44,928 nucleotides of DNA, taken from the NCBI GenBank assembly GCA_965226555.1, contig CBDDDG010000025.1, positions 1 to 44,928 on the forward strand, in the 5' to 3' direction. The notes below the pieces were generated by a model. That model saw only the letters and a program-made list of their open reading frames with translations, did not search any database and was not told the DNA's origin. This document shows positions 21,887-42,375 of the stretch, one piece after another (position 1 is the stretch's first letter; each line of letters opens with the position of its first letter). This DNA is from Salinispira sp. (lineage in GTDB: Bacteria > Spirochaetota > Spirochaetia > DSM-27196 > Salinispiraceae). The translations under genes were made by a program, and so were the position numbers.

Positions 21887-22244
21887 ATTTCCAACCAATT
21901 ATTTTATCACAGGGCATACAATCGGGAAACAAAACGCCCGATCCCAGCAGAACAGAAGAATCAATTTTCAACCAAACAGGGTTGGGAATACGTTGGTCTT
22001 GCTTTGCCCAATAGAGCATGGGATGATCATCACAAAATGCTAAATGGACATACCTGTCTACGTTATTCAACATGTCCGCGTTGCGGCTCACGTCATTCCC
22101 CCCCATTCGAGGGGGCTTAATTCCCCGATTTTTCAATTCAGCAAAGGAAAATAGCCCATTGTGCTTTTTTATTACGTCAAGATTGGACTCATCGGTAAAA
22201 TGCCAAACTTCATCAATATTGTATTTTTGAATAGTTTTTTTCAT
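21846..22244 (-). CDS. darT: DarT (DUF4433) DNA ADP-ribosyltransferase, probably internally deleted
   Basis: WHFTDESNL..I...GL.S, YVHLAFCDDHPMLY, WLKID; only 132 aa and no AE-hydrophobic catalytic strand; overlaps the NADAR gene. Confidence 0.8.
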   Translation of the reverse strand: MKKTIQKYNIDEVWHFTDESNLDVIKKHNGLFSFAELKNRGIKPPRMGGNDVSRNADMLNNVDRYVHLAFCDDHPMLYWAKQDQRIPNPVWLKIDSSVLLGSGVLFPDCMPCDKIIGWKYDKSSDIHPFSCT

Positions 22245-22536: not shown

Positions 22537-23934
22537 TTAGTCTGTTTTGCGGAGCTCCTTTCCGCGTTTGGCGCCGAACTCCCTGAGAAGCCGCACCTCG
22601 CTCTCCTTTTTTTGTTTTAGCGCGTGGTCGAGGACTGTCCATCCTTTGTTATCGGTTGCATTCACATCGGCGTCGTCCTCAAGGAGCGTGTACATAATAG
22701 AGGGGTCTTCGGCGTTTTTAGCCGCGATCATGAGAACTGTTAATCCTATACCTTTGATGGAGGCATTCACATTGGCTCCGGCCTTAATGAGCGCGTGAAT
22801 AACAGCGGGGTTCTTATTGCGCACAGCCGCGCCCATGAGGGGTGACATGTCGTTTAAATCAACCGCATTCACATCGGCTCCGGCCTCAATGAGCGCGCGA
22901 ATAACAGAGACCCTTCCATTGCTCGCCGCCCCGCACATGAGGGGTGTTACGTTGTCCGCATTGACCGCATTCACATCGGCTCCGGCCTCAATGAGGGTGT
23001 GGATAAGAGCAGGGGTCTTGGCGTTTGTTGCCGCGCCCATGAGGGCTGTTACGCCGTAGTCATTGATCGCGCTCACATCCGCTCCGGCCTCAATGAGGGC
23101 GCGAACAATGCTAATGTCTCTATTGCCCAGAATTGCATATAAGAGCGCCGTTAATCCAGAAGCGTTAGCCGTATTCACATCGACATTATCCTTCAGGCGG
23201 GCAATTAATTCTGATGTACTCAGGCTATCCCAATCGATATCCATCCACGTTTGTTTCGATTTTTTCATTGATCCCTCCAATTCCTGCCGCAGTTTGCTGT
23301 GCTTCTGCGCGCCATCCTTGGGGAGTTCTTTTCCGCTTTTTGCGCCGTGTTTGGTAAGAAGTTTCTCCGCATATTTCTTTTTTTGCTCCCGCGCGTGGTC
23401 GAGGGCTGTCCGTCCCTTCGCATCGACGGCATTTATATCTGCCCCGCATACAATGAGCGCGCGAATAATGTCGGGATCCGCGTTTGCCGTAATCGCTAAA
23501 ATTAAGGCTGTTAGTCCATTCTCATTGGCGGCATTCACATCGGCTCCCCCCTCAACAATGGCATGGATTATATAGATATTTTTACCGAATACGGCCGCAT
23601 GATCGAGAGCTGACATGCCATGCGAGTCAATAGTGTTTACATCTGCTCCGCAGTCAATGAGGGCGCGAACAATGTCGGGGCCTTCGCTGTTCCCGGACGC
23701 AAGCATAAGAGCTGTTCTGCCATTATCATCACGGGCATTCACATCTCCTCCGGCTTCGAGAATTGCATGGATAATGGTAATGTCTCTCCTATTCAAAATA
23801 GCATACGAGAGCGCCGTTAATCCGACATCGTTAGCCGCATTCACATCGGTCTTTGTCTTCAGAATGTCAATTAATTCTGATGGACTCAGGATATCCCAAT
23901 CGATATCCATCCACTTTTGTTTCGATTTTTTCAT
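22537..23934 (-). CDS. ankyrin repeat protein made of two tandem units
   Basis: About 10 GxTALMxA...LIxxGADVNA repeats; GGAGGG SD before ATG 23934 and again before in-frame ATG 23268. Confidence 0.9.
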   Translation of the reverse strand: MKKSKQKWMDIDWDILSPSELIDILKTKTDVNAANDVGLTALSYAILNRRDITIIHAILEAGGDVNARDDNGRTALMLASGNSEGPDIVRALIDCGADVNTIDSHGMSALDHAAVFGKNIYIIHAIVEGGADVNAANENGLTALILAITANADPDIIRALIVCGADINAVDAKGRTALDHAREQKKKYAEKLLTKHGAKSGKELPKDGAQKHSKLRQELEGSMKKSKQTWMDIDWDSLSTSELIARLKDNVDVNTANASGLTALLYAILGNRDISIVRALIEAGADVSAINDYGVTALMGAATNAKTPALIHTLIEAGADVNAVNADNVTPLMCGAASNGRVSVIRALIEAGADVNAVDLNDMSPLMGAAVRNKNPAVIHALIKAGANVNASIKGIGLTVLMIAAKNAEDPSIMYTLLEDDADVNATDNKGWTVLDHALKQKKESEVRLLREFGAKRGKELRKTD

Positions 23935-24040
23935 TGATCCCTCCAATTCCTGCCGCAGTTTGCTGCGCTTCTGCGCGCCGCTCAACAGGGGAACTCCATG
24001 ATCTGAAGTCCCGTTTGCGCAGGCAATAGTGATGATGCTT

Positions 24041-24069
24041 ATTCTACCATACAGGGAGGCTTTTGTTAG
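24041..24069 (-). promoter_or_regulatory. related promoter cassette upstream of the ankyrin gene
   Basis: CTAACA-N17-TAGAAT; shares TGTATGGTAGAAT with 14083 and 22375. Confidence 0.5.
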
Positions 24070-24106
24070 CCCATGCGTCCCTGTTGAGGCAGATGCGGCT
24101 GCGCTG

Positions 24107-25306
24107 TTACTCTTTGCCGCTTTTCTGCCCGTTTTTTTGGCCGTTTTGCTGAAATGCTCGAATTTCATCCTCGCTCAGCCCGGTAACATCCTGAATGTCA
24201 TGGGCTGAAAATCCTTTGGAAAACATACTGCGGGCATTTTTTCTCCGCTCCTCAATATGTCCCTCCGCGCGACCTTCTTGACGACCTTCTTGACGACCTT
24301 CTTGACGACCTTCTTGACGACCTTCCTGCCGGCCTTCTTGACGGCCTTCCTGCCGGCCTTCTTGACGGCCTTCTTGACGGCCTTCCTGAATCCCTTCCTG
24401 ACGGACTTCCTGCATTTCCCGCCGCATTTCCTTCGTTTCTTCCTGTACTTCCTGCTTGACCTGGGCTTTGACCTCTTTGTAAATTCTCAGTTGCCACGGG
24501 AACAGTATTTCTATTCCTTCTTTTGTAATCATATTAATTACCTCCTTCATAGTGTAATCGTTAACGTTCGTCTCTGAGATGTGTGTATTATAGAGCACAT
24601 CGCTCATAATTAACAAGGACTCCTTCACCTTTTCGCCAGTATCATGCTGGAGAATTTTCAAAAGATGCTTCGTGAATTCAGCGCAATTATCCTCATTCTT
24701 CAAATCTTTGTTGTAGCGCGCAAGGTAAAAATAGGCAGCCACACGACCGTGGAACTGCAGTATCTTCTCATGCGGGAGCCTATGCACATCAATAACAGGA
24801 TACTCAAAGAATTGGCGATATGTACTCGGGGGGCTATCTACCAGCGTGTCTTCCGTCGCGTTCTGCGGCCATTTCCGTATTCCCGTGTACAGAACAATGG
24901 GGTATACCCAATGATGTTGGTACGTTTTCGAATTGCGGATAGCGCGCTTGAGCATATCGGTATATTCGAATAGGCGCCTGCTCATGGAATAATCGACGGT
25001 CGATTGATGTTCCAGAATGATATAGACCGTTTTCTCTTCCTTCCCGTAGCGGAAGGAAATTTTCGCAACGATATCCGATATTTTGCGCATGAGCTTCGTC
25101 AGCTTCTTGCCTCCGAGCTCCCGAGCGATGAATTCATTGCTCACAATCGTAATGTTCTCAGGGCGAATAGAGGTGATCCAGTCATCATCGACAAATTGCA
25201 GCAGTTGATATATGGATTCCGCATCGCCAAACAAGAACTTATGAGTTTCATCCCATTGTTTTCGCGGCTTTTGATGAGCCGCCTGACTCCGTTTCTTTTT
25301 CTTCAT
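24107..25306 (-). CDS. Rpn family nuclease/putative transposase (copy 2)
   Basis: WDETHKFLF, SDIV...ILEHQSTVDYSM, YPIVLYTG; QEGR repeats; ARSM..G......VTGLS. Start codon uncertain. Confidence 0.9.
   Translation of the reverse strand: MKKKKRSQAAHQKPRKQWDETHKFLFGDAESIYQLLQFVDDDWITSIRPENITIVSNEFIARELGGKKLTKLMRKISDIVAKISFRYGKEEKTVYIILEHQSTVDYSMSRRLFEYTDMLKRAIRNSKTYQHHWVYPIVLYTGIRKWPQNATEDTLVDSPPSTYRQFFEYPVIDVHRLPHEKILQFHGRVAAYFYLARYNKDLKNEDNCAEFTKHLLKILQHDTGEKVKESLLIMSDVLYNTHISETNVNDYTMKEVINMITKEGIEILFPWQLRIYKEVKAQVKQEVQEETKEMRREMQEVRQEGIQEGRQEGRQEGRQEGRQEGRQEGRQEGRQEGRQEGRQEGRAEGHIEERRKNARSMFSKGFSAHDIQDVTGLSEDEIRAFQQNGQKNGQKSGKE
24269..24412 (-). repeat. 12-bp coding tandem repeat (QEVR, QEGI, 10x QEGR)
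   Basis: 12 units counted; the paralog has 6 comparable units at 31236-31307. Confidence 0.9.
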
Positions 25307-25402
25307 ATACTGATAACGGAGGAAATGTTCGTGAGGATTGAGTTTTTGCAAAAAAAGTTTGAAAAATGTAAAAATTTCTATTTTTTCGAGATTTTATTAT
25401 GT

Positions 25403-25436
25403 GACCAGCCCCTATTGCTGGGACTGGGGGCTGGTC
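25403..25436. other. GC-rich stem-loop downstream of lipoprotein 1
   Basis: GACCAGCCCC...GGGGCTGGTC; conserved at 32404-32437; no U-tract on the coding strand. Confidence 0.55.
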
Positions 25437-25456
25437 GGCGCTCCTCCGGCATTCGC

Positions 25457-27097
25457 TTATTCTGCCTTGGGGGGGCGGGCTCCGGTTGCCATATCGTAGG
25501 CGTAGATATAGTCATTGGTAGTATCCGTCACTAACATCGTTCCCCCGTATGCCCAGATCCCATAGGGGGCCGCATTCTCGTCAGCAAGAGTCAACACTTT
25601 TGAATTGCCGGTCACGCTGATATCGCCGTCGCTGGCTATCGTGTAGTCATAACCATAGATTTTTATTCCATTGAAACCTTGCAGCACCCACATCGTGCCC
25701 TCATCAGAGCAGATGCTATAGGTTCCAGCATCATTATTCGCAGCATTAAGCGGCAAATCCTTGCCCGTATCGCGTGATCTATCACTCATCTTGTAGGCAT
25801 ATATTGTATCTGCAGCGCTAGCCGTGTCTCCCACCCACATCGTTGTCCCATCCGACCACATACCAGAGGGGGTATCATTATCATCACTCGTAGTGAAATC
25901 CTTTCCCGAATCGCGCGCCTTAGTTTCCATGTTGTAGGCATAGAGTTTGCGATCGCTCCAATCTGATACCCACATTGTTGTCCCATCCGCCCAGATGCCG
26001 TAGAGTATATTACCCCCGACAGTAAGCGTGATGTCTTTTGACTCATCTCGCGACTTGTCGCTCATGTTGTAGGCATAGATTTTTTTATCGTTAGTATCCA
26101 GCACCCACATCGTTGTTCCATCCGACCAGAGGTCATTGGGATAATCATTCACGTTTGGAAAATCGTCTTTATAAACACCTTCATGGTTATATCCGTCTCT
26201 CTTGAATCCCTTTCGGTCATAGCCGAATCGGTTATATTCCGTGCCGGTGTAGCGGTCATTTCCTTCGGCGTCAAAGCCGTCTACGTCATACCCTTCTGAT
26301 GTGTAACCATCTTTGTCATACCCGTCTGATGTATAGCCGTATTTGTCATAACCATCTGTGTCGTACGGTATGCCAGTATCCTTATGAATGCCATCGGCAT
26401 TAAAGCCGGATGGGTCGTATTGCGTGCCCGTCTCCCGGTGATCGCCATCAGCGTTAAAACCGTCTTCGTCATAGCCGTCCGTGTCGTAACCGTACCGGTC
26501 GTATTTTTTGCCGGTGTCGCGGTGAACGCCAGCGGTATTAAAGCCCTCTCTGTTATACCCGGTCGAGTCATAGCCATCTTTGTCATATCCGTCTGATGTA
26601 TAGCCGTATTTGTCATAACCATCCGGGGCGTATGGCGTGCCAGTGTCCCGGTGAATGCCAGAGGCGTTAAAGCCGTCTGCGTCATATCCGTCCTTGTCAT
26701 AGCCATTGGCGTTAAAGCCATCCGCGTTGTAACCAGCTACATTATAGCCGTCCGGGTCGTAGTGCGTGCCGGTGTCTTGATGAATGCCGGCATCATTGAA
26801 TCCTCTTGCATCGTACATTTCACAGGCCGTGAGAATTAATATCAGGGTAAAAATGAAAACAAGCCCCCGCAGCAGACGCGGGTGGTGAAACTGGTTCCGC
26901 CGGTTTAGGCTATGCGTGGATGTCCGGCGTGGATGTCCGGCGTGGATGTCCGGCGTGGATGTCCGGCGTGGATGTCCGGCGTGGATGTCCGGCGTGGATG
27001 TCCGGCGTGGATGTCCGGCGTGGATGTCCGGCGTGGATGTCCGGCGTGGATGTCCGGCGTGGATGTCCGGCTCGGGTTGATTGTTATAATTTATCAT
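25457..27097 (-). CDS. putative surface lipoprotein with GY/FDxxG repeats and WSDGTTMWV (beta-propeller-like) repeats, copy 1, in frame
   Basis: AGGAG SD + ATG 27097; hydrophobic LVFIFTLILILTA-C lipobox; repeats visible in translation. Confidence 0.8.
   Translation of the reverse strand: MINYNNQPEPDIHAGHPRRTSTPDIHAGHPRRTSTPDIHAGHPRRTSTPDIHAGHPRRTSTHSLNRRNQFHHPRLLRGLVFIFTLILILTACEMYDARGFNDAGIHQDTGTHYDPDGYNVAGYNADGFNANGYDKDGYDADGFNASGIHRDTGTPYAPDGYDKYGYTSDGYDKDGYDSTGYNREGFNTAGVHRDTGKKYDRYGYDTDGYDEDGFNADGDHRETGTQYDPSGFNADGIHKDTGIPYDTDGYDKYGYTSDGYDKDGYTSEGYDVDGFDAEGNDRYTGTEYNRFGYDRKGFKRDGYNHEGVYKDDFPNVNDYPNDLWSDGTTMWVLDTNDKKIYAYNMSDKSRDESKDITLTVGGNILYGIWADGTTMWVSDWSDRKLYAYNMETKARDSGKDFTTSDDNDTPSGMWSDGTTMWVGDTASAADTIYAYKMSDRSRDTGKDLPLNAANNDAGTYSICSDEGTMWVLQGFNGIKIYGYDYTIASDGDISVTGNSKVLTLADENAAPYGIWAYGGTMLVTDTTNDYIYAYDMATGARPPKAE
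26914..27069. repeat. 13-bp perfect tandem repeat x12 (GCGTGGATGTCCG)
   Basis: 156 bp = 12 x 13, between start codon and signal-peptide h-region. Confidence 0.95.
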
Positions 27098-27115
27098 CAA
27101 AAACTCCTATTATCA

Positions 27116-27144
27116 ATAATAATTGAAAGCATTGAGTATGTCAA
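27116..27144 (-). promoter_or_regulatory. sigma70 promoter of lipoprotein 1
   Basis: TTGACA-N17-TATTAT, ending about 18 nt upstream of the ATG. Confidence 0.75.
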
Positions 27145-27337
27145 GCATATTTCCGAAAATTTTTGGGAAACTTTTGCATTTTGCAAAACTTTTTTTTATA
27201 ATCCCACATTGGCAATATCCTCAATTTTTCTCATGTGGAATGCTTTCTATGTGCTGAGCATTCCCGCATTTTACGGATGATCGGCAAAGAGTGCAGGGAG
27301 CCTCAGAGATAAACGCAAGGATCGCAAGGAGTTGTGT

Positions 27338-29167
27338 ATGAAAAAATTACGGTCTATTCTCGCCATACTGCATGCGCATCGGTTTCTGTATGTCATTTCA
27401 CTCATTACCATTGTTGTGGGAACAAGTTTTTCCTATATCGTTCCTCTGGTCATAAAGACGACCATTGATAGTCTCTTAAACAAGATTCCCCTGAATCCGA
27501 AAAATCTGATAGAGCGGCTCTTCATTGCCCTTGGCGGCATTGAATTCCTGAGTCCGCGGCTTTTCATTCCGGCTATTATCCTGCTGATAATAATAGCAGT
27601 CCAGGGTATATTCACCTTCCTGTCACGGATTACAGCAGCGCGGGCCTCGGAGAGCAGCATTGAAGATTTACGCAATACACTCTATGTTCACATTCAGCGT
27701 CAGCCCCTGAGCTATTTCAATCATGCGGCAACAGGCGATATCATCCAGCGCTGTACCAGCGACATTGATACTATCCGGCTTTTTCTTGAAACGCAGTTTG
27801 TCGAAATTGGAAATACCTGCCTTACCATCACCATTGCTGTCGGCATTATGTTCGGTATAAACCCCCAGCTCGCCGTGGTTACTCTGCCCATTGTTCCGAT
27901 AAGTTTTTTCTTCAGCTATTTTTTCTTTCTGAAGGTACAGGAGGTATTTGTGCTCAGCGATGAAAGCGAGGGACGCCTGTCGGAAATGCTGAGTGAACAT
28001 CTGCGCGCCATTCGGGTCGTAAAGGCCTTCGGCAGGGAGGTGCATGAAATTAAACGCTTCGATGAGCTGAATGTGGATTTCAAACATACAATGATGCGTC
28101 TTGTTGATCTGCTGGCAGTGTATTGGAGTTTTTCCAATGTATTCAGCGCCCTTCAGATTATCGTGGTGTTGACGCTCGGAACATTCTGGGCTGTGCAGGG
28201 GAATGTTACTCTCGGAACATTGCAGGTTTTCATGGCATATGTCTGGATGATTCTCTGGCCCCTGCGTCAGATGGGACGCATTCTGGTGGACATGGGGAAG
28301 GCCTTTGTGGCAGTCGGGAGAATTAATGAAATTCTTGCCGAGGTTCCTGAGGATATGCATTCTGATGCAGATTGTCCGAAAATTACCGGCCGTATCAGCT
28401 TCAAGAACGTCAGCTTTACCTATCCGCCGCCCCCGCACGACAGCGCAGCGAAGCCGCCGCAGACGGTGCTGGACAATATCAGTTTCGACATATACCCCGG
28501 GGAAATTATCGGTATTCTGGGGCCGACAGGATCGGGAAAGTCGACCATTCTTCATCTTCTTGCAGGGCTGTATCCTGAATATGACGGAGAAATACTGATG
28601 GACGGCAGGGAACTTCATCATCTTAATGTATGGGAGTACCGAAAACAGCTGGGCTATGTGCTTCAGGAACCGCTTCTCTTCAGCGGGAGTATCAAGAAGA
28701 ATATCCGTATGGGATTCCATACCGCTCATTTTACCGAGGTAACATCGGCGGCTGCGCAGGCGGAAGTTCACCAGTCCATTCAGGAATTTGAAATGCGGTA
28801 TCATACCGTGGTCGGTGAGCGGGGGGTAACGCTTTCCGGCGGGCAAAAGCAGCGGGTGGCCATTGCCCGGGCGCTTATCCGCGGATTAGCTGTGTATATG
28901 TTCGATGATTCACTCTCCGCGCTCGATGCCGAAACCGATTCGAAGATCAGAAATAATCTCATTGCCCGGGAGGGCGGGACAACAGTGCTCATTGTGAGTC
29001 ATAGACTGAGCACTATTGCGGGAGCCGACAGGATCATTGTTATAGAACAGGGCAAAGTAGGCCAAATTGGTACTCATGAAGAATTACGGCAGGAAGATGG
29101 GCTGTACAAGAGGCTTTGGGAGCTTCAGGGAAAAACGGGCGCGCATGAAAGGCGGGAGTGCATATGA
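27338..29167 (+). CDS. ABC exporter, TMD+NBD subunit A (degenerate Walker B)
   Basis: GPTGSGKS, LSGGQKQR, VYMFDD; six-TM N-terminus; AAGGAG SD. Confidence 0.95.
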   Translation: MKKLRSILAILHAHRFLYVISLITIVVGTSFSYIVPLVIKTTIDSLLNKIPLNPKNLIERLFIALGGIEFLSPRLFIPAIILLIIIAVQGIFTFLSRITAARASESSIEDLRNTLYVHIQRQPLSYFNHAATGDIIQRCTSDIDTIRLFLETQFVEIGNTCLTITIAVGIMFGINPQLAVVTLPIVPISFFFSYFFFLKVQEVFVLSDESEGRLSEMLSEHLRAIRVVKAFGREVHEIKRFDELNVDFKHTMMRLVDLLAVYWSFSNVFSALQIIVVLTLGTFWAVQGNVTLGTLQVFMAYVWMILWPLRQMGRILVDMGKAFVAVGRINEILAEVPEDMHSDADCPKITGRISFKNVSFTYPPPPHDSAAKPPQTVLDNISFDIYPGEIIGILGPTGSGKSTILHLLAGLYPEYDGEILMDGRELHHLNVWEYRKQLGYVLQEPLLFSGSIKKNIRMGFHTAHFTEVTSAAAQAEVHQSIQEFEMRYHTVVGERGVTLSGGQKQRVAIARALIRGLAVYMFDDSLSALDAETDSKIRNNLIAREGGTTVLIVSHRLSTIAGADRIIVIEQGKVGQIGTHEELRQEDGLYKRLWELQGKTGAHERRECI

Positions 29168-30993
29168 AAAACCAGACAAAACGTGAAAAGCACAAGCGCA
29201 TAATCAACATGTGGCTGAGCCTGCTGAAATATGCCGGGGAACAGCGAAGGAGTGTTGCCCTGCTCATTATTGCGCTGGTGGCAACAGCTATTGTTGATGT
29301 CATGCTGCCGCTTATGACCCGCTATGCCGTAGATACCTTTGTGGTGCCGAGGACAGTGGAGGGAATGGGGGGCTTTGTTGCCGTGTTTGTTGTGCTGGCA
29401 TTGACTCAGATGCTGAGTCTGTATGGACTCATTCACCTCGGCGGTATTATTGAAACAAGCATTGTGTATCGCCTGCGGGAGCGGGGCTTTGAGAAGCTGC
29501 AGAAATTATCGTTTGAGTATTTTGATAAAACGGCATCGGGTTGGCTGCTTACCCGCATGACTTCCGATTGCCAGCGGCTGGGAGATGTTATTTCCTGGGG
29601 CATTGTGGATATTGTATGGGGGTTCACCATGATGGGTGGAATTGCCGTTGTCATGCTGGTTCTCAATGTTCGTCTCGGCCTTGTTACTCTGGCGGTTGTT
29701 CCTCTTCTCGCAGCAGTAAGTTACTACTTCCAGACAAAAATCCTCAAATCGCAGCGGCTGGTTCGGAAGAATAACTCACGGATATCAGGAGCCTTCAGCG
29801 AGGGCATACAGGGCGGCCCGACAATAAAGGTTCTCGCGGGAGAAGAGGAAAGCGCGCAGGAATTTGCCCAGCTCACCGGAAGAATGCAGCGTACCTCTGT
29901 TATCTCAGCGCGCTTCAGCGCCATGTACCTTCCTCTGGTTATCTTTCTGGGGGCTGTTGGTACCGCTCTGGCTCTCAGCTTCGGGGGAGTAATGATTCAG
30001 ACTGAAATCATCACCTTTGGAACTCTGCTGGCCTTTATCAGTTATACCATTCAGTTCTTTGATCCCCTCAATGAGTTGGCCCGGGTTATCAGTGAAATAC
30101 AATCGGCGCGGGCCGCCGGGGAGAGAATTCTGGGTCTTATTCATACCGAAGAGGCAATTACCGACAGTGCTGAAATTTGCGCGCGCTGGGGTACGGTCGT
30201 TGATCCAAAAGATTCAGCTATTCCTAAAATTCGGGGAAGTGTCAGCTTTGAAAATGTGATTTTCCAATATTCAGGGGGGCAGACAGTTCTGCATTCATTC
30301 AGCTTAGATATTTCTGCCGGACAGACGGTTGCCATTGTTGGCGCAACCGGATCGGGAAAAACGACTATTGTTAACCTTGTGTGCCGCTTTTATGAACCGA
30401 CCTCAGGACGTATTCTCATTGACGGGAGAGATTATCGGGAAATTGGCTTGCCGGTTCTCAGAAGAAATTTGGGCTATGTCCTCCAATCGCCCCAGCTTTT
30501 TAATATCAGTATCAGGGAAAACATTCGCTATGGTAAGCTGAGCGCCAGCGATGAAGAAGTTGAACAGGCCGCAGTTTTTGCCAATGCCCATACCTTCATT
30601 TCCCGCATACCGGAAAAATATGACAGTATTGTCGGAGAAGGAGGCAGTAGTTTGTCGACCGGCCAGAAGCAGCTCATCAGTATTGCCAGAGCTATTCTCG
30701 CAGATCCTGCCATCATTGTTCTTGATGAAGCTACCAGTTCGGTTGATCCTGAAACAGAAAAGCTCCTCCAAGATGCAATTCATAAGGTTCTTCAGAACCG
30801 CAGTAGTTTTGTTATTGCGCATAGGCTTTCGACAATTCGGGAGGCCGACCGCATTTTGGTTCTGGAAGATGGGAAGATTATTGAGGACGGCAACCATGAA
30901 GCACTTCTTGCCGGTAATGGACACTACGCAGGGATGTATCGGCAACAGTTTATGGAAGAGGAAGAGTACCGCATTCTGAGCACCGAAAAATAA
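29164..30993 (+). CDS. ABC exporter, TMD+NBD subunit B (heterodimer partner)
   Basis: GATGSGKT, degenerate LSTGQKQ, consensus IIVLDEATS, AHRL; ATGA overlap. Confidence 0.95.
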   Translation: MKNQTKREKHKRIINMWLSLLKYAGEQRRSVALLIIALVATAIVDVMLPLMTRYAVDTFVVPRTVEGMGGFVAVFVVLALTQMLSLYGLIHLGGIIETSIVYRLRERGFEKLQKLSFEYFDKTASGWLLTRMTSDCQRLGDVISWGIVDIVWGFTMMGGIAVVMLVLNVRLGLVTLAVVPLLAAVSYYFQTKILKSQRLVRKNNSRISGAFSEGIQGGPTIKVLAGEEESAQEFAQLTGRMQRTSVISARFSAMYLPLVIFLGAVGTALALSFGGVMIQTEIITFGTLLAFISYTIQFFDPLNELARVISEIQSARAAGERILGLIHTEEAITDSAEICARWGTVVDPKDSAIPKIRGSVSFENVIFQYSGGQTVLHSFSLDISAGQTVAIVGATGSGKTTIVNLVCRFYEPTSGRILIDGRDYREIGLPVLRRNLGYVLQSPQLFNISIRENIRYGKLSASDEEVEQAAVFANAHTFISRIPEKYDSIVGEGGSSLSTGQKQLISIARAILADPAIIVLDEATSSVDPETEKLLQDAIHKVLQNRSSFVIAHRLSTIREADRILVLEDGKIIEDGNHEALLAGNGHYAGMYRQQFMEEEEYRILSTEK

Positions 30994-31097
30994 AGTGCCG
31001 CGAAAGGTACCGCAGCGCGAATTCCTCCTCTATGGTTTTGCCCCGCACTGAGATGGATAGTTTTGGTAAGAGCCGGACGGCTGGGTCTCCTGTGCTG

Positions 31098-32180
31098 TTA
31101 CTCTTTGCCGCTTTTCTGCCCGTTTTTTTGGCCGTTTTGCTGAAATGCTCGAATTTCATCCTCGCTCAGCCCGGTAACATCCTGAATGTCATGGGCTGAA
31201 AATCCTTTGGAAAACATACTGCGGGCATTTTCTCGAATCCCTTCCTGCCGACCTTCCTGACGGCCTTCTTGACGGCCTTCTTGAATCCCTTCTTGCCGCT
31301 TTTCCTGCATTTCTTCCTGTACTTCCTGCTTGACCTGGGCTTTTACCTCTTTGTAAATTCTCAGTTGCCACGGGAACAGTATTTCTATTCCTTCTTTTGT
31401 AATCATATCAATTACCTCCTTTATAGTGTAATCGTTAACGTTCGTCTCTGAGATGTGTGTATTATAGAGCACATCGCTCATAATTAACAAGGACTCCTTC
31501 ACCTTCTCGCCAGTGTCATGCTGGAGAATGTTCAAAAGATGCTTCGTGAATTCAGCGCAATTATTCTCATTCTTCAAATCTTTTTTGTAGCGCGCAAGGT
31601 AAAAATAGGCAGCCACACGACCGGTGTACCTGAGGAGCTTCTCATGTGGGATCCTATGCACATCAATAACAGGATACTCAAAGATTTGGCGATATGCGCT
31701 CGGGGGGCTATCTACCAGCGTATCTTCCGTCGCGATCTGCGGCCATTTCCGCATTCCCGTGTACAGAACAAGGGGATACACCCGATGATGTCGGTACGTT
31801 TTCGAATTGCGGATAGCGCGCTTGAGCATATCGGTATATTCGAATAGGCGCCTGCTCATGGAATAATCGACAGTCGATTGATGTTCCAGAATGATATAGA
31901 CGGTTTTCTCTTCATTCTTGTTCCCGTATCGGAAGGAAATTTTCGCAACAATATCCGATATTTTGCGCATGAGCTTCGTCAGCTTCTTGCCTCCGAGCTC
32001 CCGAGCGATGAATTCGTTGCTCACAATAGTAATGTTCTCAGGGCGAACATACCGTATCCAGTCATCATCGACAAATTGCAGCAGTTGATATATGGACTCC
32101 GCATCGCCAAACAAGAACTTATGTGTTTCATCCCATTGTTTTCGCGGCTTTTGATGAGCCGCCTGATTCTTTTTCTTCAT
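31098..32180 (-). CDS. Rpn family nuclease/putative transposase (copy 3)
   Basis: Near-identical to copy 2 with fewer QEGR repeats. Confidence 0.9.
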   Translation of the reverse strand: MKKKNQAAHQKPRKQWDETHKFLFGDAESIYQLLQFVDDDWIRYVRPENITIVSNEFIARELGGKKLTKLMRKISDIVAKISFRYGNKNEEKTVYIILEHQSTVDYSMSRRLFEYTDMLKRAIRNSKTYRHHRVYPLVLYTGMRKWPQIATEDTLVDSPPSAYRQIFEYPVIDVHRIPHEKLLRYTGRVAAYFYLARYKKDLKNENNCAEFTKHLLNILQHDTGEKVKESLLIMSDVLYNTHISETNVNDYTIKEVIDMITKEGIEILFPWQLRIYKEVKAQVKQEVQEEMQEKRQEGIQEGRQEGRQEGRQEGIRENARSMFSKGFSAHDIQDVTGLSEDEIRAFQQNGQKNGQKSGKE

Positions 32181-32254
32181 ATACGGATAACGGAGGGAAT
32201 GTTCGTGGTGATTGAGTTTTTGCGAAAAAAGTTTGAAAAATGTAAAAATTTCTA

Positions 32255-32308
32255 CAAAGTTTTGCATTGGAAAATTGTGCTTGCACAATTTCCATGAGCA
32301 AAACTTTC
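32255..32308. repeat. 54-bp palindromic MITE/REP-like element, copy 2
   Basis: CAAAGTTTTGC...GCAAAACTTTC with TA both sides; absent at the paralogous site near 25380. Confidence 0.85.
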
Positions 32309-32461
32309 TATAAAATAGGAGAATGCTAAGCACAGAGAGCATTCCGAATCTGAAACTTTTGCATTGGAAAAGTTTCTTCTATTTTTTCAGGATTTTATTA
32401 TGTGACCAGCCCCTGTTGCTGGGACTGGGGGCTGGTCGGCGCTGCGCGCCCAAGCGGACGC

Positions 32462-33914
32462 TTAGTCTGCCTTCGGCGGGCGGGCGCGGGTTGCAAGATC
32501 GTAGGCATAAATTCTGTCAGTAGCAGTATCCGCCACCCACATCGTTGTATCATTCGACCAGATACCGAAGCTGTTATCAATGGTCGGTACGGGGATATCT
32601 TTTGATGAATCCCGCGCTCCACCACTTAACGTGTAGGCTACAATTATTTTCCTTCCTTCTTCCATATCCAATACCCACATTGTTGTCCCATCCGACCAGA
32701 TGGCCCGTGAAGTATATCCAGTATTGGTAAAACCGCTACTGGGAGTGTCCCCGTCATTTATGGCTATGGTCATAATAGCATAACTATAAAGACCCTGTGC
32801 TACCCACATCGTTGTTCCATCCGACCAGATTCCTATGGGAAGAACAGCCGAGACCGAAATAGTGTCTCCAAATTTATTTTCCTTGCTACTCATATTATAG
32901 GCATAGATTTTATTATCGTTGGTATCTATTACCCACATTGTTGTTCCATCCGACCAGATGTCGAAAGGGCTATTATTCCCGGCAGCACTGAGCGTGGTGA
33001 AATCTTTGTCCGCCTCGTGTTCCTTGGTAATCATGTTGTAGGCATAGATTTTGTCATCGCCATCATCCGCCACCCACATCGTTGTGCCATCTGACCATAT
33101 GCCTGTGGGATCAGTATTTCCGGCAGCAGAAAGCGTGGTGAAATCGTCTCGGTAAAAACCTGCGGCATTATAGCCGTATAAATCGAACCCGTCTTCATCA
33201 TAGCCATTTTTGTCGTAGCCGTATCGGTCGTAGGGCAGACGGGTTGCCCGGTAAATACCATCAGCGTTAAAGCCGTTTTTGTCGTACCCGGCCGCGTCAT
33301 AGCCTTCGGAGTCAAAGCCGTCTGCGTCGTAACCCTGTTCGTCATAACCTTCAGGGTTGTATGGCGTTCCGTCACGATGGTTACCGTCAACATCAAAGCC
33401 CGCTGCGTTATAGCCGTCTTTGCCATAACCGTAGAGGTTGTATTCCGTGCCGGTGTCGCGGTGTTTGCCATCAGCATTAAAGCCGTCTGCGTCATAACCC
33501 TGTTCGTCATAGCCATCAGCATTAAAGCCGTCTTTGTCGTAACCGTTTACGTCATAACCTTCAGGGTTGTATGGCGTTCCGTCACGATGGTTACCGTCAA
33601 CATCAAAGCCCGCTGCGTTATAGCCGTCCTTGTCGTAGCCGTAGAGGTCGTATTCCGTGCCGGTGATATAATGAATACCATCGTCATAAAACCCGTACAT
33701 GTTGCAGGCCGTGAGAGTGAGTATTAGGGTGAAAATGAAAACAAGCCCCCGCAACAGCTGCGGGCCTTGAAATTGGTTCCGCCGGTTTAGGCTATGCTCG
33801 GGTGTCCGGCTCGGGTGTCCGGCTCGGGTGTCCGGCTCGGGTGTCCGGCTCGGGTGTCCGGCTCGGGTGTCCGGCTCGGGTGTCCGGCTCGGGTTGATTG
33901 TTATAATTCATCAT
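32462..33914 (-). CDS. putative surface lipoprotein, copy 2, out of frame (phase OFF) at the 13-bp repeat
   Basis: AAGGAG SD + ATG 33914 homologous to copy 1; 1453 nt to the stop (not divisible by 3); LTLTA-C lipobox; same repeat types. Confidence 0.75.
33796..33886. repeat. 13-bp perfect tandem repeat x7 (GCTCGGGTGTCCG) plus a partial unit
   Basis: 91 bp = 7 x 13, at the same position as the array in copy 1. Confidence 0.95.
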
Positions 33915-33935
33915 GGAATAACTCCTTAATAAGGA

Positions 33936-33964
33936 TTATTACTAAAAAACATTGAGAATGTCAA
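33936..33964 (-). promoter_or_regulatory. promoter of lipoprotein 2
   Basis: TTGACA-N17-TAATAA, homologous to 27116-27144. Confidence 0.55.
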
Positions 33965-33983
33965 GTATTTTTCCGTGCATGTT

Positions 33984-35223
33984 TGGGATATTAAGGTTTG
34001 AACAGACCCCACTTTGACCTATTATGCGATCATTTCTTCCGAGTGCCAAGCCCTCCATCGCTCAAGCGTCGGCCGTGTGAGCCGTTGCTCCATTATGATC
34101 GGCTTGAGCCGGAGAATATCACTATCCACATCGGTATTCCGCTGCCTCAAAAGATCCATCGGAGTCCCTTTTCGGTAGGTGTTGAACCGCCGGTAATTGA
34201 AATCTATCTGATACTCCTCGGCTTCCTTAAGAAACTCATTGAGCTTTGGATTCATCACCTGACTGTAGAACTCATCCTCAATGAGCCGGTGCGAGGACTC
34301 GACAGAACTGTTCCATGTGCAATGCCCGGGCGGAATACGCCGATACTCGACACCCGCCTGTATGAGCGCCTGCTCAAACCCCGATGTTCGGGTTTTGCTC
34401 AGATGTCGAACGGTGAACTCTGCCCCGTTATCGGTCTGAACCGTTATGTCCTTGACAAGGTCTCCGCCGCGATTCCGCAGGTGCTCGGCGAACAAGGTTG
34501 TTACCATACTGCTCTTCTCATTGGCGAAGGCGTACCACAGAGCCCCTGTCGCCCGATCCCGGGCGGTTATCTGGTACTTCGGAACGTCTAAACACTTCTG
34601 AGAAAACCGCATAGCGGGAATGTCCGTCAGATACTTGATATCAATCTGAATGCACTCGCCGAACTTCATCCTGTCGGTTACCTCCCGCAAATCTCTCTTG
34701 GGTAGCGCCTTCGGCTTCTTTGTTTTCCGCGCCCCTATCTGCTTTAGCGTCTTGATAATCGTCGGCAGGCTGTACTTCCCGCCAACTTCCGTCTGCAACT
34801 GCTTTTGCACCTGAGTTCCAATGATTTTGTTGTGATTCCGATTCTTGGTCTGGACAAGACTCTCGAGATGACACCGGTGCCCGAATTTCATCTTCATCGG
34901 ATGATTGGTCGTGCCCCGCTTCTTGTCTTCAAGCCCCTCGCCGGATTCAAAGCGCCGAACCCACCGCCGCACCGTGTTGCGCGACACCTCGAACTCCCGA
35001 GCAGCCGCCTTGATCGAATGCTCCTGGGCATACCGAACCATCCGCAACCGCCAATCATACATCGAAGCCGCCTGATACTTCCGAGACTTGAGATGATACT
35101 GAGAATATGTGATACTACTGTTCACTGTTTCCCTCCTTTTATGTTTTATACAACCCCCAGTGTATACGAATAACCTTCGTTTTACACTGGGGAGGAGGGG
35201 TCTGTCCAAAGGTTTATATCCCA
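33984..35223 (-). mobile_element. IS481-like insertion sequence, 1240 bp
   Basis: Imperfect 27-bp IRs (TGGGATAT.AA..TTTG.ACAGACCCC); direct repeat TTTTCCGTGCATGTT at 33969-33983 and 35224-35238. Confidence 0.9.
34022..35125 (-). CDS. DDE transposase (HTH + integrase core)
   Basis: AAREFEVSRNTVRRW HTH; QIDIKY, QTDNGAEF, VESSHR; GTG start after AAGGAGG. Confidence 0.9.
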   Translation of the reverse strand: MNSSITYSQYHLKSRKYQAASMYDWRLRMVRYAQEHSIKAAAREFEVSRNTVRRWVRRFESGEGLEDKKRGTTNHPMKMKFGHRCHLESLVQTKNRNHNKIIGTQVQKQLQTEVGGKYSLPTIIKTLKQIGARKTKKPKALPKRDLREVTDRMKFGECIQIDIKYLTDIPAMRFSQKCLDVPKYQITARDRATGALWYAFANEKSSMVTTLFAEHLRNRGGDLVKDITVQTDNGAEFTVRHLSKTRTSGFEQALIQAGVEYRRIPPGHCTWNSSVESSHRLIEDEFYSQVMNPKLNEFLKEAEEYQIDFNYRRFNTYRKGTPMDLLRQRNTDVDSDILRLKPIIMEQRLTRPTLERWRAWHSEEMIA

Positions 35224-35370: not shown

Positions 35371-37011
35371 ATGCAGCCGGTGAAAAAAAACATACTTGCT
35401 ATTGGTTCGGGAAAGGGGGGAGTCGGAAAATCGACAACTGCGCTGAATGTTGCCCTCCTGTCCGCAAAATCGGGAATTCGTACAGGAATTATCGATATGG
35501 ATCCTCTGTCAAACCTCGGGGTCATTCTCGATCTTAATGAAGAAGATCTGAAATCCCCATCAGAATCCCCAAAAAAATCCCCAGAAAAATCCCCATCAGA
35601 ATTGGCAGACGACCTTGCATCGCATACCCGTAAAATCTTTTCCCGTCTCGATCTCCTCTTTTACCGTGAAAAATCACGAACAGAGGCCGCCTCCCTGTAT
35701 GAACGTATATTTGAACGTTTCAGCAGGGAACTGGAGCAAAAATATGAGCTGATCATTATTGATCTGCCGGCGGGCATTGTACAGAATGAAAATCTTTATG
35801 TCCTTCCTCATCTGGAAAATCTTATAGTCGTTACCCATGCGGAACCCACCAGTCATGTGTCGGCTGGCGGATATATAAAAGCTGCTCTTGAGGTAAATAG
35901 CAGGCTGCATTTTCTTATCTGGAATAACAAGTATGAGGCGGGAATTGATCCGGCTTTCAATCCGGGAGATATTCTGGGCAATTATAATCGCTACGCCCCC
36001 GATGAATTGCGCCTTCCCGATTCAGTAAAGGATCGTTTGCAACATGTGGCCTATGTTCCCTCCGATCCTTCCTTGAATTTGCTGAAGACGCGGCTCGATT
36101 TCCGGCTTGATATCCTCCTTAAAATTCAGGAATCGCTGCATGTTCTGTATGAACTCATTGTTCCACTGCCCGGGAATGAGAAACTTCCGCTCATTACTCG
36201 CCGCGCACTCCGATATTATCTGCTGCATGAATACGGAGCGCCCAGCGGCGAAGGCGCTCTCACATATCTTGCCGAATTTTTTCAACGGAGCATGAGTCCG
36301 CATGATCAGGCTATTGTTGAACAGTATATTGAACAGCAAACAGAGAACCCGCTTCGGAAAGTAGTAGCTGAAAGCATGCAGATTATTACCCAAATTATGG
36401 ATATATATCGGAATAGGCAGTGGCGGAGTAATTCCTTTCAGGAAATGAGCGCTACCTTTGCGCATCTTTCTCCCCGTCTTATACATAGTTTTCAGATTTT
36501 CAACCGCCTCGTTGAATCGTTTTCTGATGAGAAAATACGGAAACGTTTTGCCTATGTTGATATGGCCATGCTGAAGAACACCTTAGGGCTTGGGTTTTTC
36601 TATTTTGCACTTCTGAAACTGCTTGAACATAAGCGTATTCAACAAGTATTGATCAGCTTTATTCCTCGAAAAAAGCGTAACGGAAAATTTGTCCGCGATC
36701 GTCATAGGCAGATCATGTTGTTAATTGAGAATGGCAGAGTATATCATCAGAAATTTTTTAATCTTGTGCGAACGCTGTTTCCCCTTGTTGAACGGCAGCT
36801 CTACCGCCTCGCGCGAATACGAAAATTGGAGAACATTCTGCTTTACGATGATAATGGCCGGATCAGAAGAAATGTCTACCTCCGGTTATTATCCGAAATT
36901 ATACACGAGTTGCTGAATGCCGGACTTGGAATACATGTGGGTATACACTTCAACAGAGCCGCGCAGGAAATTCGAAAGGGTTGGGAAGCTGTGAAAAAGG
37001 TGATAGATTGA
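35371..37011 (+). CDS. MinD/ParA/FlhG-type P-loop NTPase with long C-terminal helical region
   Basis: GSGKGGVGKSTT deviant Walker A; IIDMDP; IIIDLPAG; NKY. Confidence 0.8.
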   Translation: MQPVKKNILAIGSGKGGVGKSTTALNVALLSAKSGIRTGIIDMDPLSNLGVILDLNEEDLKSPSESPKKSPEKSPSELADDLASHTRKIFSRLDLLFYREKSRTEAASLYERIFERFSRELEQKYELIIIDLPAGIVQNENLYVLPHLENLIVVTHAEPTSHVSAGGYIKAALEVNSRLHFLIWNNKYEAGIDPAFNPGDILGNYNRYAPDELRLPDSVKDRLQHVAYVPSDPSLNLLKTRLDFRLDILLKIQESLHVLYELIVPLPGNEKLPLITRRALRYYLLHEYGAPSGEGALTYLAEFFQRSMSPHDQAIVEQYIEQQTENPLRKVVAESMQIITQIMDIYRNRQWRSNSFQEMSATFAHLSPRLIHSFQIFNRLVESFSDEKIRKRFAYVDMAMLKNTLGLGFFYFALLKLLEHKRIQQVLISFIPRKKRNGKFVRDRHRQIMLLIENGRVYHQKFFNLVRTLFPLVERQLYRLARIRKLENILLYDDNGRIRRNVYLRLLSEIIHELLNAGLGIHVGIHFNRAAQEIRKGWEAVKKVID

Positions 37012-39656
37012 TGATGAAGCCACCGAAGGGTTCCGGCGGGAAGAAGTATGATGTTGTTCTTGAGCTGGAAAATTGTATTGCGAAGACTGTTAAAGATAAA
37101 GACGACAATACGGTTCTGGGTATTGATGTTTACACACATTGCCTCATTGTCGGCCTTATTGCGCGGGAGCTCATTCAGAATTTACCAGCGAAATTGCGGG
37201 AGGAATTTTTTCCGGTCGGCGCCGAGCTTATTGCGGCGAGTCATGATATTGGAAAAATTTGCCCGCATTTTCAGGAAAAAATTTATCGCAGCCGTCCTCA
37301 ATACACCAAGAACAGTCAGTCCGGTTTGGAAGATGCCGATCCATCTTTTGAGAAACAGTTAGGATACCATTCAGGAGTCGGTCAATCGGCGCTCGATGGA
37401 CTGGATGGACTGGGAAAGTACATTCCTCAAATTGTTGGCGCGCATCATGGAAGATCAATAGACTGCCGGCATATCAAAGATTCCAATGCCGAAATACTCG
37501 GAGGACGGAAATGGCAACAGCAAAGGCTGAAGCTGGTGGAACTGCTGAAAACAGAGCTGAAGGCTAATTGGCCCGTCATCAATTCTGACTTACAGGCCAG
37601 GCTTATTACTGGTCTGACAATAGTTTCAGACTGGATTGGCAGTAATTCTCATTTTGAATTTACCCACAATAATAAGCCCGCAATTCACAGTCTGGCAACA
37701 CGAGTGCAGAATGCTCTTACAAACGGAGGACTCAAGCGCCCAAAAATACAGCGGGAACAGACCTTTCAATCGTTATTTCATTCCTACAATCCCTATCCCG
37801 TACAGGAAGAATTTATTAGCCGCGTGAATGGGCCCGGACTGTACATACTTGAGGATCAAATGGGACGGGGCAAAACGGAGGCTGCTCTTCTCGCGGCCTA
37901 TAATATGATGGATCGGGGAATTGCATGTGGAATATATTTTGCCCTGCCGACGACCCTCACATCTGAAAAAATGTATGACCGCTTCAATGAGTTCACCGAC
38001 AAAATATTAGACTATGCTGAAAAACATCGCGCATTAGTGGCGCACGGCAAAGCATGGCGCTATGACCACGATTGGGGAGAGGATGCCCGTCCGGGGCATT
38101 CATGGTTTGCTCCGCGCAAACGGGCATTGCTGGCGCCTTTTGCTGTCGGAACTATTGATCAGGCTCTTATGTCCGTACTCAACGTCAAGCATTCTTCGCT
38201 GCGATTATTCGGTTTGAGCACCAAGGTCGTTATTCTCGATGAGGTACATACCTACGATGCCTACACCGGCACCCTGCTGGATACACTTATTTCATCATTA
38301 TATAAGTTGGGCTGCGTTGTTATTGTGCTGAGCGCCACACTTCAGAATGATCGGAAAAAGGAAATTTTTGCGCAATGCAGAGGTGATGCCGACAATACCG
38401 CAGACATCTCGATTCCTGATCATTATCCGCAAATATCTTCGCTGCCGCTGAAGGTCCCTCTTAGTTTTTCGCCGCCGTATGAACAGGATGAAACGGAGCA
38501 GAGGAGCGTAGCAGTTCACAGCCATGTTTCCGATGCCGATGCCCTGAATGAGGCCCTCGACAGGGCCCTGCGCGGGGACTATGTGCTCTGGATTGAGAAT
38601 ACGGTTAGGGAAGCCCAGGAAATATACAGGGTTCTGGGGGCGCGTGGGCGGGAAAATGGTGTGGAGATCGGGCTCCTCCATTCGCGTTTTACCGCGTTGG
38701 ATCGGGAAAAACGTGAGAAACACTGGGTCAATAAATTGGGAAAGGGCAGGGACGAATATACTCCCGGTGTGGGTTGTATTCTCATTGGAACGCAGGTTCT
38801 CGAACAGTCGCTCGATATTGATGCCGATTTTCTCGTCACGCGGCTGGCTCCGAGCGATATGCTCCTGCAGCGGACGGGGCGCTTGTGGAGGCATACAGTG
38901 AATAACGCGCTCCGTCATGCACATGCCCGACCGGATCTGTATGTTCTTATGCCGTCTCCCGATAATCTCCTGCAAGAACTGCAAGCGGGCAGGTTCCTTA
39001 CCGGCAAAGTTTATGCCCCCTATGTACTGCTCAGAACATGCGAGGTCTGGCAGAACATTACTGAACTCACCCTCCCCGGGAACATTAGAGAAATTATCAA
39101 TAAAACATATAAAGATCGACAGGAAACAGAACCCCTGCAACAGACCCTGCTCAAAGACCTGCGCGATGAAAAAGAAAAACTACAGAGGTTTGCGCGTCTG
39201 GGAACGGCAACGGCAGGCCATACACAGAATGATAACGATACCGTCCCAACCCGTTATTCAGAGCAGCAAACAGTTGAGGTACTGTTACTGAAAAACTATG
39301 CGGCGAATGCGCAGTCGCGTGTACTCACATTTCCGGATAATACAAAGCTGACAATATCAGCAGGCAGAAAAGCAACTCCGGCAGAGCGAAGGGAGACCGC
39401 AAAAATACTTTATCGGCATATACTTTCGGTGCCCGAATATCAGGCTCCCGAACGCTACAGCAGAAATGAACTAAATTGGCTAAGTCCCTATCTGTATCTT
39501 GGCGATAAAATGCAGGCAGAAGTGGCGCTTGCAATTATCGGCGAAAGTGGTATACTACACGGTTTGAGAGGTGAAGAGATGAGCGATGCTCAAACATTAC
39601 GGTACAATGACACTGGATATGTTGCTGAAAAACATGATAAGAGATATATGCTATGA
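37011..39656 (+). CDS. cas3: CRISPR-associated helicase/nuclease Cas3
   Basis: HD domain (HDIGK, HHG, SDWIGS); MGRGKTEA; DEVH; SAT; QRTGRLWRH. Confidence 0.97.
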   Translation: MMKPPKGSGGKKYDVVLELENCIAKTVKDKDDNTVLGIDVYTHCLIVGLIARELIQNLPAKLREEFFPVGAELIAASHDIGKICPHFQEKIYRSRPQYTKNSQSGLEDADPSFEKQLGYHSGVGQSALDGLDGLGKYIPQIVGAHHGRSIDCRHIKDSNAEILGGRKWQQQRLKLVELLKTELKANWPVINSDLQARLITGLTIVSDWIGSNSHFEFTHNNKPAIHSLATRVQNALTNGGLKRPKIQREQTFQSLFHSYNPYPVQEEFISRVNGPGLYILEDQMGRGKTEAALLAAYNMMDRGIACGIYFALPTTLTSEKMYDRFNEFTDKILDYAEKHRALVAHGKAWRYDHDWGEDARPGHSWFAPRKRALLAPFAVGTIDQALMSVLNVKHSSLRLFGLSTKVVILDEVHTYDAYTGTLLDTLISSLYKLGCVVIVLSATLQNDRKKEIFAQCRGDADNTADISIPDHYPQISSLPLKVPLSFSPPYEQDETEQRSVAVHSHVSDADALNEALDRALRGDYVLWIENTVREAQEIYRVLGARGRENGVEIGLLHSRFTALDREKREKHWVNKLGKGRDEYTPGVGCILIGTQVLEQSLDIDADFLVTRLAPSDMLLQRTGRLWRHTVNNALRHAHARPDLYVLMPSPDNLLQELQAGRFLTGKVYAPYVLLRTCEVWQNITELTLPGNIREIINKTYKDRQETEPLQQTLLKDLRDEKEKLQRFARLGTATAGHTQNDNDTVPTRYSEQQTVEVLLLKNYAANAQSRVLTFPDNTKLTISAGRKATPAERRETAKILYRHILSVPEYQAPERYSRNELNWLSPYLYLGDKMQAEVALAIIGESGILHGLRGEEMSDAQTLRYNDTGYVAEKHDKRYML

Positions 39657-41161: not shown

Positions 41162-41678
41162 AAAAAGTACAAAATATGTTGATGCTGTTATCGTAGCAGT
41201 AAACAGAGATACTACCGCTCTTCGGGCCAAACTCAGCAGGGCCGATAACAATTCAACCGAGTATGGGGCATGGCCCTTTCTGTCTCGCTGGGTTGATCTT
41301 GATAAGAGCAGCGACAAGAGGCGTTCCTACGCGCTGGTCGCTGCCGCCATTGCGCGGGTGCGCCCGGCCCCGGAGAAAAACGGAGACACCCCTTTGGGAA
41401 GGGCATTGCTGTTTGTTTCCTCCGATTCGGCGCAGGAAGATACGCCACCGGAAGCACGCGAATCTGCCCGGCTGCGGCGGATACTCGCCTGCCAGAGTAC
41501 ATCGGAACTTATTGATGTATTACGGCCCATACTCCGCTTTCTGGGGGCAAAGGGGGTGGGGTTGGATTACGTGCGGTTGTTAGATGATATTGTCTATTTT
41601 TACGATGATAATAGCCGTGAACGCTCAAAGTCCCGCTGGGCGCAGGAATTTTATTCTTACCGGGGCGATGATCAATGA
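41154..41678 (+). CDS. cse2: type I-E small subunit Cse2/CasB (Cas11)
   Basis: RAKLSRAD, ARLRRILAC, LDYVRLLDDI, RWAQEFY. Confidence 0.92.
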   Translation: MSEKSTKYVDAVIVAVNRDTTALRAKLSRADNNSTEYGAWPFLSRWVDLDKSSDKRRSYALVAAAIARVRPAPEKNGDTPLGRALLFVSSDSAQEDTPPEARESARLRRILACQSTSELIDVLRPILRFLGAKGVGLDYVRLLDDIVYFYDDNSRERSKSRWAQEFYSYRGDDQ

Positions 41679-42274: not shown

Positions 42275-42279
42275 TAATA

Positions 42280-42333
42280 CAAAGTTTTGCATTGGAAAAT
42301 TGTGCTTGCACAATTTCCAGTAGCAAAAGTTTC
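42280..42333. repeat. 54-bp palindromic MITE/REP-like element, copy 3 (between cas6e and cas7)
   Basis: CAAAGTTTTGC...GCAAAAGTTTC with TA both sides. Confidence 0.85.
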
Positions 42334-42375
42334 TAATAGAAACTTGAAAATAACCTGAAATAAAGGAGTGTAGGA

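Follow-up and report, generated by a model that had tools for sequence, protein, structure and literature searches.

Here we describe two paralogous genes for predicted surface lipoproteins, gene 1 and gene 2, in a 44,928-nucleotide (nt) stretch of Salinispira sp. DNA (the window), which is contig C25 of a 2.98-Mb genome in 26 contigs. In each gene a pure 13-bp tandem array intervenes between start codon and lipobox, and the number of units thus sets the reading frame of the lipoprotein. Judging from the sequence, both genes probably undergo translational phase variation of the Neisseria Opa type, with a minisatellite as the repeat unit. Each unit gained or lost would displace the frame by one base, so that every third count would be ON and restore a precursor with a longer basic n-region, and the other counts would lead to a stop just 3' of the array. 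The outcome would be random, gene-by-gene ON/OFF switching of a predicted surface lipoprotein. "ON" and "OFF" refer throughout to the frame state in the assembly consensus, not to measured expression.

Tandem Repeats Finder places array 1 at 26914-27071 (period 13, 12.2 copies, 100% matches) and array 2 at 33796-33894 (period 13, 7.6 copies, 100% matches), and each array begins 21 nt after its ATG. A first-pass annotation of this DNA had described perfect arrays of 12 and 7 units behind a promoter, a Shine-Dalgarno (SD) sequence and an ATG, and all of these elements are present, with promoter-like sites that agree with the consensus at 11 of 12 positions in each gene (Table 1). Both unit numbers come from the assembly alone. 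At 12 units gene 1 is in frame, as had been proposed, and is open from ATG 27097 to its stop at 25457, with a mature part of 455 residues. Gene 2 read from ATG 33914 ends after 40 amino acids (aa) at the predicted TAG (33792-33794), and the frame 3' of array 2 is open for 444 codons. The distance from ATG to the lipobox Cys is 273 nt in gene 1 (117 + 12x13) and 208 nt in gene 2 (117 + 7x13). For counts of 0 to 15 units, both genes were computed to be in frame at 0, 3, 6, 9, 12 and 15 units, with signal peptides of 39 to 104 residues. This agrees with the earlier expectations that 6 or 9 units would restore gene 2 and that ON states lengthen the n-region in 13-residue steps. The n-region of gene 1 is 77 residues long and contains 12 Lys and Arg and 5 Asp and Glu residues. 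The parallel drawn between the two arrays holds for the period of 13, but the units differ at 3 of 13 positions, and array 1 starts with a single gene-2-type unit ahead of 11 of its own.

The two genes had been annotated as a pair. The pair is real, but it belongs to a genome-wide set of arrays with several unit lengths, which the first-pass annotation missed. Using thresholds of our own choosing, with the copy-number cut set after the list was seen, we found 189 perfect arrays, 129 with units of a multiple of three nucleotides (3n) and 60 with other units (non-3n). All seven perfect non-3n arrays with a unit of 5-20 nt and at least four copies lie just upstream of a lipobox. The same position holds 1 of 12 shorter non-3n arrays and 17 of 31 single-base runs, but none of the 17 3n arrays with at least four copies and none of the 84 shorter 3n arrays. 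Segments from start to lipobox make up 0.71% of the genome. The Fisher p value for this placing is 2.9e-6, or 1.7e-4 with the four 13-mers taken as one of four unit classes. Five of the six perfect 13-bp arrays of the genome (at least 2.5 copies) stand at this position in a single lipoprotein family, and for this reason the arrays at genes 1 and 2 are not due to chance. The sole 13-bp array outside the family (C12:105542-105588, 3.6 copies) is upstream of or inside an unrelated 240-codon frame. Four unit lengths of at least 5 nt occur at this one spot, and five of the seven long arrays are in frame where one third would be expected (p 0.045).

By pattern search, which gives a lower bound, the family comprises 29 genes with a lipobox followed by a repeat stalk. 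In eight of these, a non-3n repeat intervenes between the SD-ATG and the lipobox. Five of the repeats are 13-mers (2, 6, 7, 7 and 12 units); the others are a 7-mer with 30 units, an 8-mer with 4.5 and a run of 12 C. The lipoprotein is out of frame in four of the eight, as against 0 of the 21 repeat-less members. Three related but different 13-mers share one position in the family. The arrays of genes 1 and 2 and of the 13-mer genes on C1 and C10 are pure except for edge units, and therefore indicate recent turnover. Sister genes on C22 and C23 contain a single 13-mer and the shared 7-nt partial unit and are in frame. From these sequences we infer that the arrays grew from a one-and-a-half-unit seed, still present in the array-less sister genes, with turnover fast enough for unit variants to take over. 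The ON counts depend on the length of the head, being 1, 4 and 7 units with a 20-nt head and 0, 3, 6, 9 and 12 with a 21-nt head. Full-length bodies are kept despite the out-of-frame state in gene 2 (414 aa) and in the 8-mer gene on C10 (435 aa). The 7-mer (C10:346959-347170, 30 copies) directly follows the ATG of a propeller lipoprotein gene, is in frame, and lengthens the signal peptide by about 70 residues. A 5-mer of 10 copies (C10:284599-284647) also directly follows the ATG of a propeller lipoprotein gene, again in frame.

Unit number would change by replication slippage or unequal exchange. Units above 10 nt are classed as minisatellites, for which recombination may dominate (PMC3899988), and recombination instead of slippage is a live alternative as the mutational route for 13-nt units. 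This length makes a classical simple sequence repeat (SSR) locus less likely, but does not lower the case for an SSR-like way of working. We also considered hairpin-driven instability. Array 2 folds better than its shuffles (z -4.5 and -2.8), and array 1 does not (z +1.7 and +1.2); hairpins were rejected as a shared requirement because array 1 folds no better than shuffled sequence.

Several observations weigh against phase variation. The four 13-mer arrays are homologous and do not count as independent events, and the ON form of gene 1 requires that the 77-residue n-region of the predicted precursor pass export and processing. Only 20 nt separate the -35 site of gene 2 from the end of an IS481-type element. 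Five of the 29 paralogues have truncated bodies, including two of the four out-of-frame ones, so the family also decays. No change in unit number was seen at any one locus, the locus checked being that of the 8-mer, where runs X1 and X2 (one sample) contain one allele and no second. As contigs drop rare variants, the single 8-mer allele is weak counter-evidence.

The truncated paralogues and the insertion element, a recent copy just upstream of gene 2 (17 near-full copies, 96.7-100% identity), also fit an explanation that we consider unlikely. According to this, the arrays are by-products of free tandem duplication, the n-region of redundant paralogues is tolerant of them, and gene 2 is a young pseudogene. 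That 129 of the 189 perfect arrays have 3n units is likewise in its favor. However, a tolerant region would collect 3n arrays at least as readily, and not one of the 17 long or 84 shorter 3n arrays is found there; this placing control is our main argument against neutral growth. Four unit lengths of 5 nt or more would also have had to converge on one spot, and the gene 2 body is free of stops, with all five propeller blades intact. The genome also encodes MutS and MutL domains, in open frames of 853 and 596 aa, and a general loss of mismatch repair was therefore rejected as the cause of the arrays.

We next consider whether the assembled lengths can be trusted. If the arrays were real but miscounted, the ON/OFF contrast would be an assembly error, which we judge the least probable of the explanations weighed here. 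The counts of 12 and 7 are those of the assembly, and short-word contigs cannot count arrays of this length. The neighboring sequence, however, agrees with independent contigs: those of run X1 match 27142-31123 (3,982 bases) without a difference, and they match the gene 2 body equally well at 32400-32956 and 33127-33250. At the sister 8-mer locus (4.5 units, out of frame), single contigs of X1 and of X2 traverse the array letter for letter, so its OFF state is no consensus error; this array is outside the coverage of runs X4 and X5. The excess of in-frame long arrays given above is not favored by arbitrary counts, and a wrong count would still leave the architecture of a switch. A contig of run X5 fits 27085-27469 and departs from the window at 36 letters towards the array.

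Peptides derived from the arrays also occur in three proteins of a second assembly labelled Salinispira sp., whose genes are MGI9256420.1, MGI9255943.1 and MGI9257153.1. In one of these proteins four gene-1-type units can be read, and its start, M-T-I-N-P, fits an out-of-frame allele that would have been annotated from an ATA codon. The remaining two are incomplete and start within the 13-mer or 7-mer peptide, which is what contig breaks at arrays would produce. The 7-mer gene of this assembly clusters at 90% with its counterpart in the present genome. Beyond these two assemblies, 75 homologue loci were kept of at least 407 confirmed, and the frame start was reached in 68. No array with a non-3n unit above 1 nt was found near the frame start in these 68 loci, which include two of another Spirochaetales genome, and four of the 68 have a single-base run of at least 9 within 300 nt of the frame start. 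A run of 12 G in a Nitrosopumilaceae genome (L074:3920-3935) and a run of 20 C in a Limisphaerales genome (L075:3430-3455), each near the frame start of a propeller protein, are possibly single-base switches on the same domain family.

Gene 2 could also escape its array if translation started or restarted 3' of it, at TTG 33754, and the array would then be a leader frame that at most tunes the protein level. Read from this codon, the frame is 430 codons long and includes a short but complete signal peptide of 16 aa; the codon lies 38 nt 3' of the TAG that ends the 40-codon peptide. There is a precedent for leader peptides that carry repeats and act on downstream genes, such as that of Streptococcus gallolyticus pil1 (PMC3894217). 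Nevertheless, a bypass of this kind appears very improbable. The SD pairing, computed with a generic anti-SD, is -2.8 kcal/mol at the TTG versus -7.7 kcal/mol at the gene 2 ATG, the codon is CTG in gene 1 (+1.3 kcal/mol) and most of the subfamily, and in all 21 repeat-less paralogues the SD-ATG is in frame with the lipobox. The placing statistics, the frame states across the family and the weak bypass start all speak for the ON/OFF switch put forward in the first-pass annotation; its slippage route, its rate, and the expression, lipidation and export of the long precursors are conjectural.

Both products have the lipobox LTAC after a 14-residue hydrophobic run (a pattern match) and are predicted surface lipoproteins. 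Neither matches a Pfam or NCBIfam family over cut-off. AlphaFold2 modeling of the gene 2 product from the TTG (11-sequence alignment, mean pLDDT 81.5, pTM 0.59) gave a signal helix (helix 2-17), a stalk of glycine-tyrosine-aspartate (GYD) repeats and five four-stranded blades. Fold searches with this model returned beta-propellers only. The C-terminal domain aligns with bacterial glutaminyl cyclase (3mbr; Z 23.1, root-mean-square deviation (rmsd) 2.4, 204 residues) and with the YjiK C-terminal domain (3qqz; Z 21.4, rmsd 2.7, 208 residues), and in this model its fold is clearly a five-bladed beta-propeller. At 8-14% sequence identity to the two structures (8% to glutaminyl cyclase), no function can be transferred, and likeness assigns none to this domain. 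The GYD-repeat stalk was barely tested by the fold search, and the Atlas held no usable match for it. The only match in a profile search of solved structures, to IcmE/DotG (E 4e-8), was set aside as compositional, a likeness of glycine-rich repeats. In genome contigs the propeller is found across many phyla, including Candidatus Poriferisodalis.

Five of the genes share 87-96% identity over the 89 nt from array to Cys but 39-81% over their last 200 residues. This suggests that the 5' cassette has been copied between genes or that the heads diverge quickly. On the same grounds we put forward a broader reading, though only as a doubtful extension: a shared 5' switch cassette of promoter, SD, 13-bp minisatellite and signal peptide, passed by copying among genes whose propeller heads diverge, would give combinatorial surface display. 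The different unit lengths (1, 5, 7, 8 and 13 nt) would then provide graded switching rates, and the signal peptide, at 39 to 104 residues, would adjust export among ON states. Translational phase variation at genes 1 and 2 would itself imply that ON precursors with signal peptides of 39 to about 100 residues are still exported.

The closest parallel is the opa (P.II) family of Neisseria, in which CTCTT repeats in the signal-peptide coding region switch the genes (PMC3899988; bioRxiv 10.1101/2020.09.16.300947); here and below, comparisons refer to the accessible parts of the cited sources. In both systems a non-3n repeat separates the start codon from the mature part of a surface protein, the frame is open at every third count (6, 9, 12), and each member of the multigene family is set separately. 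The opa unit is 5 nt and the products are outer-membrane barrels, whereas here the unit is 13 nt, the products are lipoproteins, the units differ between paralogues and the ON states extend the n-region in 13-residue steps. Switching has been demonstrated for opa and is here proposed from sequence. In Haemophilus influenzae, repeat candidates reach 7 to 9 nt and units above 7 nt are infrequent (PMC2651432). Its contingency loci share with the present genome the occurrence of several unit lengths, some inside reading frames, but here four coding-sequence arrays of 6 to 12 units have a 13-nt unit. The PARCEL lipoproteins MAG1330 and MAG3260 of Mycoplasma agalactiae (PMC2996958) differ in using a poly-G tract, and PARCEL is absent from the Pfam matches of either lipoprotein described here. 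The pil1 leader peptide of S. gallolyticus contains 22 GCAGA repeats (PMC3894217), and repeat number again sets the frame of an N-terminal peptide. However, that leader is separate, acts by attenuation and has a 5-nt unit, while the array described here, with 13-nt units, is part of the lipoprotein frame itself in the ON state. No 13-nt phase-variation switch was found in the literature searched, with most subscription journals outside it, and none appears in the accessible parts of PMC2651432, PMC11868660 and PMC12817950. A literature search for phase variation in sponge symbionts yielded only a general review. The principle of the switch is old, and the long repeat unit is its unusual part.

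The source is probably a sponge-associated, Salinispira-like spirochaete, as inferred from the best full-length protein matches and from sponge-metagenome contigs. Among the best 120 of 1,898 matches, the full-length protein matches come from this genome or from the assembly labelled Salinispira sp. One run labelled sponge metagenome has contigs that fit the window over pieces of 150-250 bases, each with 0 to 4 differences, and two labelled cave metagenome fit it at about 97-98%. Protein-level relatives were found in 2 of 31 genomes, namely this genome and one with a weak propeller match (E 5.8e-5), and the array pattern in one of eight genomes of the bacterium's family, again this genome. DNA motif scans gave two matches in metagenome contigs, both of which proved on inspection to be in unrelated sequence, and none in genome contigs. 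The start of contig C23 (C23:65-2104) contains (CA)38 and other 2- and 4-nt microsatellites, unlike the remaining genome, and is possibly host DNA joined to the contig.

The positions of the two genes and their elements are listed in Table 1. The two promoter-like sites are the best of 20 sigma-70-type matches in 25300-34100, a total near the shuffle mean of 13.1 (sd 4.1). In an attenuator of the pil1 type, a terminator hairpin would follow the leader frame and precede the structural gene. Terminator-like matches are found just 3' of both arrays, at 33764-33748 and 26882-26866, but the total of 15 such matches is also near the shuffle mean (9.7, sd 3.1).

Table 1 Features of gene 1 and gene 2 in the window.
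Feature	Position	Strand	Remarks
Gene 1, predicted lipoprotein	25457..27097	-	546 aa from ATG, in frame at 12 units
Gene 1 regions: 91-aa signal peptide, GYD-repeat stalk, propeller repeats	25457..27097	-	
Promoter-like site, gene 1 (TTGACA, 17 nt, TATTAT)	27116..27144	-	11/12, consensus match only
SD word AGGAG, 6 nt before ATG 27097	27104..27108	-	pairing -6.8 kcal/mol
Array 1: one CCCGAGCCGGACA unit, 11 TCCACGCCGGACA units and a 7-nt partial unit	26914..27076	-	
Gene 1 hydrophobic stretch and lipobox LTAC	26822..26881	-	Cys codon 26824-26822; pattern match
Gene 2 as assembled: out-of-frame peptide, 40 codons	33792..33914	-	TAG 33794-33792
Array 2: seven CCCGAGCCGGACA units and a 7-nt partial unit	33796..33893	-	
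Gene 2 intact body, 444 codons	32462..33796	-	lipobox Cys at 33706
Gene 2 body regions: GYD-repeat stalk, predicted five-bladed beta-propeller	32462..33796	-	
Promoter-like site, gene 2 (TTGACA, 18 nt, AATAAT)	33935..33964	-	11/12, consensus match only
SD word AAGGAG, 7 nt before ATG 33914	33922..33927	-	pairing -7.7 kcal/mol
In-frame TTG 3' of array 2, possible weak bypass start	33752..33754	-	SD pairing -2.8 kcal/mol

Each lipoprotein gene is followed by a gene for an Rpn/YhgA-family nuclease, at 24107-25351 and 31098-32342 (- strand; TIGR01784 over cut-off). Since the two Rpn genes are 91.7% identical over 1,043 nt, lipoprotein gene and Rpn gene may form a duplicated cassette. An Rpn neighbor occurs at 4 of the 29 family members versus 1.2% by chance (13 Rpn copies), and two of these four are the pair in the window. 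An ankyrin-repeat protein gene (22537-24168, -) is directly behind the first Rpn gene. The IS481-like element upstream of gene 2 (33984-35223, -; the best NCBIfam match, below cut-off) has the same direction of transcription as gene 2. In one frame at 19193-21898 (-), a NADAR (DarT1-associated) domain at residues 7-215 is followed by an N6/N4 methyltransferase at residues 360-697; the frame may represent two genes without an intervening stop, the second perhaps with its own SD and start near residue 248. It is upstream of a type III restriction-like gene (14204-17164). Type I-E CRISPR-Cas genes (Cas3, Cas7) occupy 36981-44165 (+), and the window also holds restriction-like, KAP NTPase and Panacea genes.

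If phase variation at genes 1 and 2 is confirmed, frameshift switching would work with 13-nt units, beyond the units of at most 9 nt named in the accessible literature. Searches for short-unit repeats would miss such loci, and annotation would label OFF genes as pseudogenes or shift their starts. The arrays would also provide a clean test of the maximum length of a lipoprotein n-region. Should the shared-cassette display hold too, phase variation would be extended to minisatellites and to an uncultured, probably sponge-associated symbiont. For the family itself, the switchable members would vary which propeller-tipped stalk proteins the cell displays, with an animal host or phages as the most likely counterpart. 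This would amount to pathogen-style bet-hedging on a large surface-protein family of a non-pathogenic, probably host-associated spirochaete.

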